Assembly (NCBI RefSeq): GCF_008065095.1
Contig: NZ_CP042911.1
Coordinates: 7,050,001-7,082,000, forward strand
DNA length: 32,000 nt
Source of the DNA: Gemmata obscuriglobus
Lineage (GTDB): Bacteria; Planctomycetota; Planctomycetia; Gemmatales; Gemmataceae
Reading direction: 5' to 3'
Shown: positions 24,608 to 28,293 of the stretch, piece after piece
Layout of the letters: each line of letters starts with the position of its first letter
How positions within the stretch are numbered: position 1 is the first letter of the stretch
The notes under the pieces: model-generated
Databases searched by the model: none
The model's input: only the letters and a program-made list of their open reading frames with translations
What the model was told of the DNA's origin: nothing
Translations under genes and position numbers: made by a program

Positions 24608-24914
24608 CTCAGAACCTTACAGGGTGTGCGCGGGCCTACGGCGAGCAAGAAGTTATTCGACCGGATGGCGGGCGGAACCGAACCAAACAAAGTGACTCGT
24701 GCGGTGCGGCGAACCCGGTTCATCCTGCCGAAAACAGCTCCCTATTCTGTTGTTCTACACCTTTACCGTGATTTCGGAAGGCCGAGTTTGCGGCAAACGC
24801 TCATCCGCGAAGTGATAGATACCAAGAGACCAAGGGCTCTCGTATCGAATCCGATCCGGTGGTTTCAAGTTGTAGGCAGCCCAGATGTGATCACTCGCAG
24901 AACCCAACAGGTTA

Positions 24915-24980
24915 CACCCGCCTGCTGACGCAGGCGGTTCGACCGTGGCTCGTCGAACCGCCTGCGTCAGCAGGCGGGTG
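24915..24980. repeat. Perfect 29-bp-stem hairpin with an 8-nt loop and a nested palindrome
   Basis: I verified that 24915-24943 is the exact reverse complement of 24952-24980. Each arm holds its own 8-bp palindrome (CCGCCTGC tgac GCAGGCGG, 24918-24937). Confidence 0.85.
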
Positions 24981-25299
24981 GCGCACAACCAACAGCTTGA
25001 AACGACTGGACTCCGGTTGAAGATCAACTGCTCGGCAGGGTGTCGGTTGCACCCGCCGACTCACTCCGGCGGGTGGCGCTCCCAATCACCGGTACTATTC
25101 GACGAAGCTTGGTATCACTTCTGGCTACCGTCCCGAAATTGCGGATCTCCAATTCACTTCCTGAAGGCAAAACGGAACTTTTGCTCCCGGCCCGTGAGAA
25201 GTTGCGTAATCCGTACCGCATGATCCTGCCGGAGCAGCCCGGACTGCGAACTCCAATCAAACCTGCCTGAATTACCAACTCGTCTTGCGCCGATGGGGG

Positions 25300-25896
25300 A
25301 TGTGCAACACGATAGACCCTACATTCGGGGTTCGGGGACCATTCATCGTGACAACGCAGTCCGCTTCGTCGAAACCGTCGGGACCGCTGGCCCTCGGGTT
25401 CCTCGCCGTGCTCCAGGACCAGACCGGCTGGCTCGGCGGGTACTTGGTGACCAACGGCTGGGGCCGACCGCTCGAGTTCCGCCTCACCACCGCCGTGCAG
25501 CCGAACCGGGTCCAAACTGCCCTTTACGGCCCAACCTTGACGGAGTACCTGCATGCCGATGTGATCGGGAAGACGCTGGTGGAGAAGACGGGCACGAAGC
25601 CGGACCTCGTCGTGACGGACTCCCTCTCGGTACTCGCGCTGCGCTCGCGCATCGAGGTGCCGGTGGTGGCGGTCTGCCCGCCGGGCGCGGTGCCGCCGAA
25701 CGCCGTGACGATGCCGCACACCCGCACGCCGGGCGGGCTGATCCTGCCGGCCCGCTTCGCGGGCGACCGCGAGGCGGTCGAAGAGCTGCTGGCCCGGGTG
25801 GACTCGGCGGTGGACCTGTCCGAGCCGTTCGCGCGGGTCCGTGAGGCGGTGGCCGAGGCCCGCAAGATGGGGGTGACGAACCGTGCTGCGGCCTGA
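25300..25896 (+). CDS. Hypothetical protein of unknown family (~198 aa; alternative GTG start at 25348)
   Basis: Strongly G/C-ending codon usage from about 25350 onward. No family recognised. Conserved-looking core GFLAVLQDQTGWLGGYLVTNGWGRPLEFRLTTAVQPNRVQTALYGPTL. Its stop at 25894-25896 overlaps the first candidate start of the SNF2 gene. Confidence 0.6.
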   Translation: MCNTIDPTFGVRGPFIVTTQSASSKPSGPLALGFLAVLQDQTGWLGGYLVTNGWGRPLEFRLTTAVQPNRVQTALYGPTLTEYLHADVIGKTLVEKTGTKPDLVVTDSLSVLALRSRIEVPVVAVCPPGAVPPNAVTMPHTRTPGGLILPARFAGDREAVEELLARVDSAVDLSEPFARVREAVAEARKMGVTNRAAA

Positions 25897-27880
25897 CGGC
25901 TTGGAAGGCGAAGAAGTGGTCCCGACGGCGCTGGCTCTGGGACAGGAGTTGTTCGCGGCGGCAGCCCCCCTCCCCCCCTTCCCGGAAACGCGAGGGGGAA
26001 CCGAACCCGCTTCATTTCCGGTTCTGAGCCCTTCCCTCTCGGTGGAAGGAGACGAGTTCTTTTCGCTCGACGCGACGCCCGAACTCCCTCGCCCCGAAGT
26101 GCGTGAGCTGGCGGGCGAATTGCACGCGCCGCCGCCCGCGCTGGGGGAAGGGGCCGGGGAACGGGGCATCGGTCTCGTCGTCGAGACCTTCGGCCTCTCG
26201 AAACTCGATCACCCGCTCGAACCGAACGTCCGCGAGGCCAAGCTCCTGACGGACGCCCCGTGGGTGCGCGCGCTGGGGCGCCTCGAGCTGAGCGTCACCA
26301 CCGAGGGGTGGAAGTTCCCCGCCCCGCCGGCGGGGTTCGATTCCGCCCCGCGCCCCGCCACAGAGCCGCGGGCGGGCCGGCAGTCGATCCCGCAGCCCGC
26401 CCTGCCCGACCAGCAGGAGCCGGCGAAGCCGCGCATCCGCCCCAAGCCCACCGCGGACACCGTCTTCTTCAAGGACCGGCTGTTGTACCTGCTCCAGCCG
26501 CCGCTCGACAGCCTCTTCGACGGCCGGCAGCTCGAGGTGCCGTTCGAGCCGTACCCGTACCAGCTCGAGGGCATCGCGTTCCTGATGCCGCGGCACCACG
26601 CGCTCATCGCCGACGAGATGGGGCTGGGCAAAACCGCCCAGGCCATCCTGTCGCTGCGGCTGCTGTTCCACTCGGGCGAGATCAAGCGCGGCCTCGTGGT
26701 GTGCCCGAAGCCGCTCATGCACAACTGGGCGCGCGAGCTCAAGATGTGGGCGCCCGACGTGCCGTTCGAGGCGTTCGAGGGCGACCCCGAGCAGCGCCGC
26801 AGCACGTGGCTCGTGTCGAACTGCCCGCTCAAGCTCATCAACTACGAGACGCTGACGCGCGACTGCGACCTCGCGGCCGACGCGCGCGTCCAGTTCGACG
26901 TGGTGGTGCTGGACGAGGCCCAGCGGATCAAGAACAAGGAGTCGAAGACCGCGCTGGTGGTGCGGGGGCTGAACCGCGGGCGGAGCTGGGCGCTCACCGG
27001 CACCCCCATCGAGAACCACCCCGACGACCTGGTGAACATCTTCAGCTTCGTCGCCCCCGGCCGCATCCCGGCCGAGACGCCGGCCAAGCGGATCCCGCAG
27101 TACACCTCGGACCTGATCCTGCGGCGCACCAAGGACGACGTGCTCACCGACATGCCGCCGAAGGTGATCCGCGACCTGGAGGTCGAGCTCACCCCGGCGC
27201 AGCGCGCCGCCTACGTGCGGGCCGAGAACGACGGCGTCATCCAGTTGAACGCGCTCGGCGACACGATCACCGTGCAGCACGTGTTCCAGCTCGTGATGCG
27301 GCTGAAGCAGATCTGCAACTTCGACCCGCTCACCGGCGAGAGCGCGAAGCTGGTGCAGCTCCTCTCCGACATGGAAGAGGTGGCGGAGAGCGGGCGGAAG
27401 GCGATCATCTTCTCGCAGTGGGTGGAGCCGCTGGAGGTGCTCGCGAAGGCGCTCGCGAAGTACGGGCCGCTCCAGTACCACGGCAAGATCCCGCAGCCCC
27501 AGCGGACCCCCATCCTCGACCGGTTCAAGTCCGACCCGAGCGCCCACGTGCTCCTGATGAGCTACGGGACCGGGAGCGTGGGGCTGAACCTGCAGTTCAC
27601 GAACTACGTGTTCCTGTTCGACCGCTGGTGGAACCCGGCGATCGAGGACCAGGCCATCAACCGGGCGCACCGGCTGGGGCAGAAGCACCCGGTCACGGTC
27701 ACCCGGTTCCTCAGCGGCGGCACCATCGAGGGCCGCATCGCGGACATCCTGGACGCCAAGCGCAAGGTGTTCAACGACCTCATCGCCCAGGCCGACAAGC
27801 CGGCCTCCCTGGGCCTGAGCGAGGACGACATCTTCGGGCTGTTCGACATCAAGGCCCGACCCAAGCGCGACAAGCACTGA
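25883..27880 (+). CDS. SNF2-family (DEAD/DEAH-like) helicase/ATPase with an ~230-aa N-terminal extension
   Basis: Motifs PYQLEGIAFL, DEMGLGKT (I), DEAQRIKN (II), ALTGTPIEN (III) and QAINRAHRLGQ (VI). The start is uncertain. 19 of the first 61 codons end in A/T, and alternative GTG starts exist at 25916, 26042 and 26099. Confidence 0.88.
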   Translation: MLRPDGLEGEEVVPTALALGQELFAAAAPLPPFPETRGGTEPASFPVLSPSLSVEGDEFFSLDATPELPRPEVRELAGELHAPPPALGEGAGERGIGLVVETFGLSKLDHPLEPNVREAKLLTDAPWVRALGRLELSVTTEGWKFPAPPAGFDSAPRPATEPRAGRQSIPQPALPDQQEPAKPRIRPKPTADTVFFKDRLLYLLQPPLDSLFDGRQLEVPFEPYPYQLEGIAFLMPRHHALIADEMGLGKTAQAILSLRLLFHSGEIKRGLVVCPKPLMHNWARELKMWAPDVPFEAFEGDPEQRRSTWLVSNCPLKLINYETLTRDCDLAADARVQFDVVVLDEAQRIKNKESKTALVVRGLNRGRSWALTGTPIENHPDDLVNIFSFVAPGRIPAETPAKRIPQYTSDLILRRTKDDVLTDMPPKVIRDLEVELTPAQRAAYVRAENDGVIQLNALGDTITVQHVFQLVMRLKQICNFDPLTGESAKLVQLLSDMEEVAESGRKAIIFSQWVEPLEVLAKALAKYGPLQYHGKIPQPQRTPILDRFKSDPSAHVLLMSYGTGSVGLNLQFTNYVFLFDRWWNPAIEDQAINRAHRLGQKHPVTVTRFLSGGTIEGRIADILDAKRKVFNDLIAQADKPASLGLSEDDIFGLFDIKARPKRDKH

Positions 27881-28079: not shown

Positions 28080-28253
28080 TTTTGACAGGATCAACAGGAT
28101 TAAACAGGATGAATACAGCCTTGTTTAGTCCTATCGACCCGACTAAACACACATGAATTTATCATGCAACCAACGATCATTCACAGCAAGCGCAATGAAC
28201 GGGGCCAATGCACCTCTGCTTGATCCTGTTTAATCCTGTCGATCCTGTCAAAA
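28080..28253. repeat. MITE-like element with 33-bp terminal inverted repeats built from phased ACAGGAT heptads
   Basis: Left end TTTTGACAGGATCAACAGGATTAAACAGGATGA (28080-28112) matches the reverse complement of 28221-28253 at 31/33 positions. The heptads start at 28085, 28094 and 28104. The core is ~108 bp and AT-richer than its surroundings. Confidence 0.6.
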
Positions 28254-28293
28254 TTTGCCTCCGTCCCGATACCACCGCCGCGCCGGCCCGGGG

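Follow-up and report, generated by a model that had tools for sequence, protein, structure and literature searches.

What does an SNF2-family ATPase do in a bacterium when its gene overlaps that of a partner belonging to no known family? A gene pair in Gemmata obscuriglobus raises this question. It lies on contig NZ_CP042911.1 within positions 7,050,001 to 7,082,000, a stretch of 32,000 nucleotides that we call the window and to which all coordinates without another label refer. To our knowledge, most of what is understood about bacterial SNF2 ATPases comes from RapA and from defence systems, and this pair behaves like neither. An initial annotation of the window had leaned towards an accessory defence cassette. 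Our comparative analysis favors another reading, in which the two genes form a vertically inherited, coupled operon for a housekeeping two-subunit DNA-transaction complex, and a subunit with a fold like that of endonuclease V (EndoV) would target or regulate an SNF2 translocase. We give this reading a probability of about 0.5. The features on which it draws are as follows (aa, amino acids; nt, nucleotides; GC3, GC content at third codon positions; AF2, AlphaFold2).

25348..25896, + strand: small gene for a 182-aa protein of an unannotated family with a predicted EndoV/DUF99 fold; start GTG 25348, stop TGA 25894-25896 (GC3, homologues, AF2/Foldseek)
25328..25336, + strand: GTTCGGGGA, conserved candidate ribosome-binding site, so designated from its position 12 nt upstream of GTG 25348
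25883..25896, + strand: overlap junction of 14 nt (…AAC CGT GCT GCG GCC TGA / SNF2 start GTG), putative translational-coupling junction
25883..27880, + strand: SNF2-family ATPase gene, 665 aa, SSO1653-like prokaryotic type (Pfam, structure match, orthologues)
26204..26329, + strand: conserved N-terminal block of the ATPase, aa 108-149 (…PLEPNVREAKLLTDAPWVRALGRLELSVTTEGWKFPAPP), candidate docking module; conserved in orthologues, without a family match
26552..27682, + strand: helicase core, from the Q-like motif YPYQLEG to motif VI QAINRAHRLGQ (computed motif positions; Pfam limits)

Two overlapping genes with a conserved junction

The small gene lies in an open reading frame (ORF) that spans 25285-25896 on the + strand, and it is coding: GC3 is 0.85-0.97 in its frame from ~25380 to 25860, against 0.4-0.7 in the other two frames, and it has thousands of conserved homologues. 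Its product shares 99% identity with a 182-aa protein annotated as hypothetical on CP025958.1, where the gene order is the same. The block LGGYLVTNGWGRPLEFRLTTAVQPNRVQTALYGPTL, which the initial annotation had named as the core of the protein, does occur in it and is better conserved than any other block of the family. The length of 198 aa given there, counted from ATG 25300, fares less well. A start at GTG 25348 is more likely on comparative grounds: annotated homologues begin at its equivalent, and the stretch 25300-25348 appears to be non-coding because two relatives (L007 and L013) carry indels of 4-5 nt there in an alignment of upstream regions. The same indels, lying downstream of ATG 25300, led us to reject that codon as the start. 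Within the alignment of four Gemmata-level upstream regions, the columns of GTTCGGGGA are invariant.

Gemmata-level relatives share two conserved non-coding motifs upstream of the small gene, CCGATGGGGGATGTGC (25288-25305) and GTTCGGGGA (25328-25336). The former holds two ATGs that some gene callers have taken as starts elsewhere (P0017 and P0021, beginning ‘MGDV…’); in the window, the ATG at 25293 is out of frame, and the one at 25300 is followed by indel-tolerant sequence. The non-coding gap upstream of GTG 25348 measures 740 bp. A scan of the whole window against Rfam returned no family at gathering score, and hence no known RNA element in this spacer.

The junction between the genes is strikingly regular. 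In almost every Gemmatales locus a GTG sits at -11 or -14 relative to the small-gene stop; counted back from the last letter of the stop codon, the distance is 11 nt in Gemmatales and 14 nt in Gemmata, which has one extra Ala codon. Two Pirellulales loci (L087 and L088) have a 4-nt ATGA overlap in place of the GTG. The C-terminal tail of the small protein (…KMGVTNRAA), conserved in Gemmatales, overlaps the SNF2 start signals. A conserved overlapping start is the classic signature of translational coupling and implies that translation of the second gene is coupled to that of the first. The tight same-strand pairing with a 14-nt overlap at GTG 25883 that the initial annotation had described is sound; the overlapping start is conserved in Gemmatales and seen in two Pirellulales loci, and the linkage is conserved in three orders. 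A simple consensus scan between the two ORFs likewise found no terminator-like site, as had been claimed.

The conserved overlapping GTG and in-frame conservation together support GTG 25883 as the SNF2 start, since the first ~25 residues from this codon are kept in frame among Gemmata-level relatives. GenBank's 618-aa call would begin at 26024 (10677 of L001), 47 codons downstream of GTG 25883; the codon there is CTG in the window, and the comparative data favor 25883. We also considered and rejected a programmed +1 frameshift that would fuse both ORFs. In most loci a stop closes the SNF2 frame so that it opens only 6 nt upstream of the GTG, and the absence of any protein longer than 329 aa among the 150 listed small-protein representatives (50% clusters) counts against fusion as well. 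Coupling by reinitiation is the simpler reading: a ribosome ending on the small gene would restart at the overlapping GTG, giving the two proteins in fixed proportion.

A large partner family tied to SNF2 genes

The small protein has no match in Pfam, NCBIfam, PADLOC or PHROGs, and Pfam searches with 38 diverse family members at E <= 10 were equally empty, including for Endonuclease_5 and DUF99. A family absent from these four resources nonetheless has thousands of members: the Gemmata query retrieves 4351 homologous clusters at 90% identity, a Pirellulales-type profile, in a search limited to 8000 candidates, at least 7195 such clusters, and a third profile 2526 clusters, while at 50% identity the family comprises 1486 clusters. 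The initial annotation could not assign the protein to any family, and at the level of sequence families this stands; at the level of fold, as described below, the protein can be placed.

Source names indicate a Gemmatales subfamily (Gemmata, Frigoriglobus, Fimbriiglobus, Limnoglobus and Urbifossiella) and two others, from Pirellulales and from Planctomycetales including Schlesneria paludicola. A few contigs bear the label of another phylum (L044, L071 and L080). These labels are taken to be binning errors, because a Gemmatales-type sulfite reductase neighbor is present in L044 and L080, and part of one in L071.

Linkage to SNF2 genes, which the initial annotation had proposed as a check, was counted in three samples. 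The Gemmatales sample held 80 loci from distinct GTDB species, counted where there was room downstream; the Pirellulales-type sample held 84 loci, mostly metagenomic, counted where at least 700 nt of room remained. In ~65 of the 67 Gemmatales loci with room (the exceptions being L058 and L083), the next gene downstream on the same strand encodes an SNF2 orthologue of 65-91% identity. SNF2 also adjoins the small gene in 53/53 Pirellulales-type loci, with gene calls confirming the adjacency on all four of the long Pirellulales contigs (4/4), and in 3/3 Planctomycetales loci including S. paludicola. Genes beyond the pair differ among the three orders, and the conserved unit is the pair itself.

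Three loci depart from this picture in detail. In the metagenome-assembled L058 (6507-10041) and L083 (downstream of 6495), the ORFs that follow the small gene are on the opposite strand, and the SNF2 gene is not next to it. At 7069-8015 of L049, two SNF2 matches lie ~950 nt apart with query residues duplicated at the junction, a pattern that may reflect mobile-element insertion or misassembly.

An EndoV-like fold that has probably lost its canonical active site

Two independent AF2 models were built for the small protein, model 1 from 25 sequences (predicted local distance difference test score, pLDDT, 76.9) and model 2 from 88 sequences of Gemmatales and Pirellulales (pLDDT 90.4, predicted template-modelling score 0.86). 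The predicted topology runs beta-beta-beta-alpha-beta-alpha-beta and ends in a beta-hairpin and two helices. Searched against the PDB with Foldseek, both models returned endonuclease V first with probability 1.00 (E = 8e-5 for model 1). The top match of model 2 is E. coli EndoV (4xpu; E = 1.1e-5; template-modelling score, TM, 0.56/0.50), and the next is an archaeal DUF99 protein (2qh9; TM 0.57/0.58, E 2.8e-3). Weaker matches include PIWI (TMq ~0.3), RuvC, integrase and RNase H domains.

EndoV (Nfi, Pfam Endonuclease_5) and the small protein share the same order of secondary-structure elements as well as collinear motifs of the forms KPDxVxxD, P(V/T)xxV and EP(F/T)xR. The motif order comes from hhalign, which we used for that purpose and not as proof of homology; it sets KPDLVVTD of the small protein against KPDLVFVD of EndoV, PVVAV against PTIGVAK, and EPFxRIREA against PEPTRWADA. 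The small protein is ~40 residues shorter than EndoV and, leaving aside the two metagenomic exceptions above, is always encoded with an SNF2 gene, unlike E. coli nfi, whose neighbors on the two sides are hemE and yjaG. By sequence it matches neither the EndoV family (Pfam, PDB EndoV sequences) nor DUF99/UPF0215, to which its likeness is one of fold only. We read the small protein as a probable divergent member of the EndoV/DUF99 branch of the RNase H-like fold, a homology that rests on the modelled fold together with motif order.

Does such a protein still cut? The catalytic tetrad of E. coli EndoV we take to be D35 in beta-strand 1, E82 after beta-strand 3, D103 after beta-strand 4 and D206 in the C-terminal helix, the last being a His/Asp position. 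In sets of 38 and 88 diverse members, the small protein has LGFLxV in beta-strand 1; F18 and L19 never vary, and G17 is at least 90% conserved. EndoV has AGxDxxF at the same place, and L19 was set opposite the Asp by eye (AGxD against LGFL). Because an invariant Leu occupies this position, the metal-binding Asp of beta-strand 1 appears to have been lost. The full EndoV tetrad thus seems not to be preserved, a canonical two-metal active site is unlikely, and the small protein is probably not a canonical nuclease. The other residues that the family keeps invariant lie elsewhere: N36, R40, P41, E43 and F44 in the hairpin between beta-strands 2 and 3; Q56, L59, G61 and L64 where helix 1 begins; and E159, P160, R163, A167 and E170 where the C-terminal helix begins.

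The positions of the tetrad bear directly on an alternative in which the pair is an active repair machine, the small protein nicking a lesion or a branched or hybrid structure while the SNF2 protein delivers it or processes the product. That EndoV is the best structural match of both models speaks for such a machine, as do several conserved positions. KPDxVxTD aligns with the block in which EndoV has its catalytic D103; D91, the equivalent of D103, is at least 90% conserved; the second tetrad position is uncertain, and the nearby residue 71 in helix 1 is acidic in 38/38 members; E166 aligns with the fourth catalytic position; and the EP(F/T)xR motif is kept. Yet the Asp that is replaced by an invariant Leu is the one essential in RNase H-like nucleases, D91 gives way to A, T, E or Q in several members, E166 is variable, and none of the 38 members matches Endonuclease_5 or DUF99 in Pfam even at E = 10. 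Eukaryotes do offer parallels in Rad54-Mus81 and in the SNF2-HNH enzyme ZRANB3, which act in replication-fork or recombination repair. The likeness is one of concept only, an SNF2 translocase working with a structure-specific nuclease-fold module; the nuclease folds differ, there is no sign of common descent, and the partner here is probably without the canonical catalytic residues. Taken together, we consider an active nuclease-translocase machine rather unlikely.

An SSO1653-like SNF2 motor with a conserved N-terminal block

The second gene encodes an SNF2-family protein, with SNF2-rel_dom (1.4e-44; 152.8 bits against a cut-off of 24.9; aa 226-479) and Helicase_C (8.6e-18; 65 bits against 23.5; aa 494-599) both above their Pfam gathering scores and all motifs present. 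The initial annotation had reported motifs I, II, III and VI as intact, and each was located (DEMGLGKT, DEAQ, TGTPIEN and QAINRAHRLGQ), together with Ia (VVCPKPLMHNW), IV (IIFSQW) and V (GTGSVGLNL); the motif I region is conserved in orthologues. The closest solved relative is S. solfataricus SSO1653 (1z63; 9.5e-62; aa 130-545 of a 571-aa query), followed by Mot1 and ISWI/SNF2h-type remodellers. Like SSO1653, the ATPase has a two-lobe core with all motifs and no fused effector domain, and by its intact motifs it is predicted to be an active double-stranded-DNA translocase of the SSO1653 type. It differs from SSO1653 in having an obligate upstream partner gene and an N-terminal extension of ~225 aa that includes a conserved block of 42 aa and a linker rich in Pro.

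That extension had been described as ~230 aa, proline-rich and partly of low complexity. The length and composition are about right, at ~225 aa and 16% Pro overall, rising to 25% in the linker (residues 156-195). The extension is heterogeneous and not uniformly of low complexity: residues 1-95 are variable and expanded in Gemmata; residues 108-149 are conserved across 31 Gemmatales orthologues, with a W/F-x-F-P-x-P core still recognisable in Pirellulales; and residues 184-212 form a conserved stretch directly before the helicase core. A Pfam search with aa 1-226 found no family match. The Pfam scan of the whole protein likewise found no nuclease, methylase or other domain outside the helicase core. 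The earlier statement that no nuclease or methylase is fused therefore applies to the ATPase itself; its partner, though, has a nuclease fold.

A RapA-like role would have the SNF2 protein recycle or remodel RNA polymerase, with the small protein as an adaptor to the polymerase or to an RNA:DNA hybrid. RapA (HepA) is the one characterised housekeeping bacterial SNF2 ATPase that we can name, and the pair resembles it in being chromosomal and in behaving as housekeeping genes do. RNase H-like folds are suited to RNA:DNA hybrids, which would fit such an adaptor, and we know of no EndoV-fold partner gene for RapA itself. Unlike RapA, which has specific domains at its N and C termini, the ATPase has no Pfam domain outside its helicase core. 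Its score against the NCBIfam RapA equivalog is 60.8 bits where the cut-off is 576, with a match that covers the motif-I/II stretches only, and RapA is absent among the 60 chains listed as solved relatives, where SSO1653, Mot1 and ISWI come closest. Several ‘RapA-like’ SNF2 paralogues are carried by Gemmataceae, and some were detected in the T. immobilis proteome, according to one article (PMC8567305), which lends the idea some plausibility. We nevertheless judge a RapA-like function unlikely.

The ATPase also shares its SNF2 core with SNF2 proteins of defence systems (ZorD, DrmD, DpdE and BrxHII of BREX). Among PADLOC models it matches ZorD (4.4e-68), DpdE (4.3e-57) and DrmD (3.1e-37), all of which cover the generic SNF2 core only. 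Against the corresponding NCBIfam equivalogs it scores 5-12 times below the cut-offs: 128.5 bits against 1500 for ZorD, 66.1 against 500 for DpdE, and 87-88 against 610/950 for DrmD. By these scores and by the genes around it, the ATPase belongs to none of ZorD, DrmD, DpdE or RapA.

A stable chromosomal locus with recent intergenic repeats

The surroundings of the pair look like those of a core chromosomal locus. In 48 fetched loci, almost all of them Gemmatales and not counting the window, a sulfite reductase gene is the divergent neighbor on the upstream side, and GDPD and DsbH-like (thioredoxin) genes stay downstream in about a dozen closer relatives. Across 31 loci, identity to the copies in G. 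obscuriglobus averages 65% (small protein), 73% (SNF2) and 71% (sulfite reductase), and the three sets of identities correlate (r = 0.76-0.84). The pair thus diverges in step with its housekeeping neighbor, apparently in a clock-like manner. Searched by tblastn, 72,556 plasmid and 50,697 phage records gave no match to the small protein. On these comparisons the pair looks core across the three sampled orders of the class Planctomycetia, as a stably and vertically inherited chromosomal locus. The initial annotation had named a universally conserved core locus of known housekeeping role as the case against it, and the pair answers to the core half of that description but not to the half about a known role.

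The repeats on either side had given the initial annotation its picture of an isolated, repeat-bracketed cassette. The structured upstream DNA, the 32-bp hairpin and the MITE-like element (resembling miniature inverted-repeat transposable elements) that it listed are all real:

24915-24980: upstream hairpin, 29-bp stem, 8-nt loop
27947-28018: downstream hairpin, 32-bp stem, 8-nt loop
28073-28113 / 28220-28260: MITE-like element, 41-nt inverted repeats, 90% complementary, 106 nt apart

The two hairpins, one on each side of the operon, are the only long perfect hairpins in the window. Both are absent from the orthologous intergenic DNA of G. algarum and are insertions specific to G. obscuriglobus, as is a ~335-bp stretch (~24827-25162) in the promoter region that separates the small gene from the divergent sulfite reductase gene. 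Only G. algarum shares the MITE-like inverted repeat, which is missing in the more distant L007. The flanking repeats are, by this comparison, best seen as recent decoration of intergenic DNA and not as the boundaries of a mobile unit.

Read by eye, each hairpin arm contains a nested 8-bp palindrome. At the downstream hairpin site, the outer portion of the left arm already exists in G. algarum, and a 65-nt insert in G. obscuriglobus completes the palindrome. The ~335-bp insertion holds the 29-bp hairpin and, again read by eye, a second short hairpin CACCCGCCG…CGGCGGGTG at ~25052-25077, which shares CACCCGCC/GGCGGGTG ends with the first. The shared ends suggest a family of elements like REPs (repetitive extragenic palindromes) or MITEs.

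All of this weighs on the defence hypothesis, under which the pair would be an accessory two-gene system against phages or plasmids, its SNF2 motor and nuclease-fold effector restricting foreign DNA. The idea has understandable roots: the helicase core matches PADLOC models for ZorD, DpdE and DrmD well, the partner has a nuclease-type fold, and palindromic and MITE-like repeats flank the operon in G. obscuriglobus. The PADLOC matches, however, reach no further than the generic SNF2 core and the equivalog scores fall far short. No ZorABC, DrmABC/methylase or Dpd companion genes occur near the pair, whose neighbors are sulfite reductase, GDPD and the DsbH-like thioredoxin. Nor is the small protein found in PADLOC, in PHROGs or in the plasmid and phage records. 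The conserved synteny with sulfite reductase, the parallel divergence, the recent and species-specific origin of the hairpins, and the missing catalytic Asp all point the same way. Anti-phage systems are generally patchy and mobile, in variable islands or on mobile elements, and the locus appears to be none of these. A defence role is accordingly not what the data favor, and we regard it as highly improbable.

The case is also a caution for the mining of defence systems, in that strong matches to ZorD, DpdE and DrmD together with flanking repeats did not point to a defence island here.

A proposed housekeeping remodelling complex and its precedents

Under the housekeeping reading that we favor, the small protein and the SNF2 protein would form a complex. 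The EndoV-fold subunit would recognize nucleic acid or regulate the motor, with a damaged or deaminated base, an RNA:DNA hybrid or branched DNA as candidate targets, and the SNF2 motor would translocate on DNA at the expense of ATP, remodelling or clearing protein-DNA or RNA-DNA structures at the site. The role in the cell would be chromosome maintenance or transcription rather than phage defence. A more specific version is tentative: a nuclease-dead EndoV-fold subunit could read a nucleic-acid feature and steer or gate the SNF2 protein through the conserved N-terminal block, so that the whole would act as a lineage-wide housekeeping remodeller, much like a miniature eukaryotic remodelling complex. 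An EndoV/DUF99 fold that has lost its Asp accommodates several hypotheses, among them recognition of a lesion or structure, regulation of the motor, and a non-canonical nuclease.

Several points weigh against the housekeeping complex as we have drawn it. The structural agreement is only moderate, with TM scores of 0.5-0.58 and root-mean-square deviations of 4.6-6.5 Å. Profile searches against PDB sequences (A1 and A7) give chance matches only, with no EndoV among them, and hhalign of the family against the E. coli and T. maritima EndoV pair gives a probability of 6.7%. Residues were mapped to the active site by sequence and secondary-structure register only, and the always-acidic residue 71, the D91 kept in most members and the E166 found in many would be compatible with a non-canonical active site. 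The core status comes from sampled loci in three orders of Planctomycetia and not from a census of all genomes, and the neighboring genes give no functional clue.

Combining an SNF2 motor with a nuclease-fold module is a known theme, as in ZorD, whose PADLOC description lists an Mrr-like nuclease. The pair itself seems not to have been described: we found no account of it in the searchable literature on Planctomycetes and SNF2, on endonuclease V-like proteins or on RNase H fold neighborhoods. PIWI-RE systems were considered only for the weak PIWI matches in Foldseek. They reportedly (the name is that of Burroughs et al. 2013) combine, within one operon, a large protein with a PIWI module, a DinG-type helicase and a nuclease of the restriction fold, whereas the small protein here has 182 aa and its partner is SNF2, not DinG. 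In the PIWI-RE paper (PMC3702460), the term ‘SNF2’ does not occur.

If the more specific version with a nuclease-dead subunit is borne out, it would represent an undescribed way of targeting a bacterial SNF2 enzyme and a new non-catalytic use of the EndoV fold. The setting is an attractive one, in that Planctomycetia have an unusual nucleoid organisation and some of their species are genetically tractable.

A lineage-specific neighbor in Pirellulales

One further gene accompanies the pair in part of its range. In 51/57 Pirellulales-type loci, a conserved gene of ~155 aa lies divergently, ~200-600 bp upstream of the small gene; its product carries the motif …DGEFMLNEFVDRFGPRLAHLNGVLQVLSQLS.

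L085 6181-6654, minus strand: ~155-aa divergent gene
L087 6245-6721, minus strand: ~155-aa divergent gene
L088 6326-6793, minus strand: ~155-aa divergent gene

The protein has no significant Pfam match, and tblastn finds no copy of it in either the window or the Gemmatales loci. The gene may encode a third partner, specific to this lineage.

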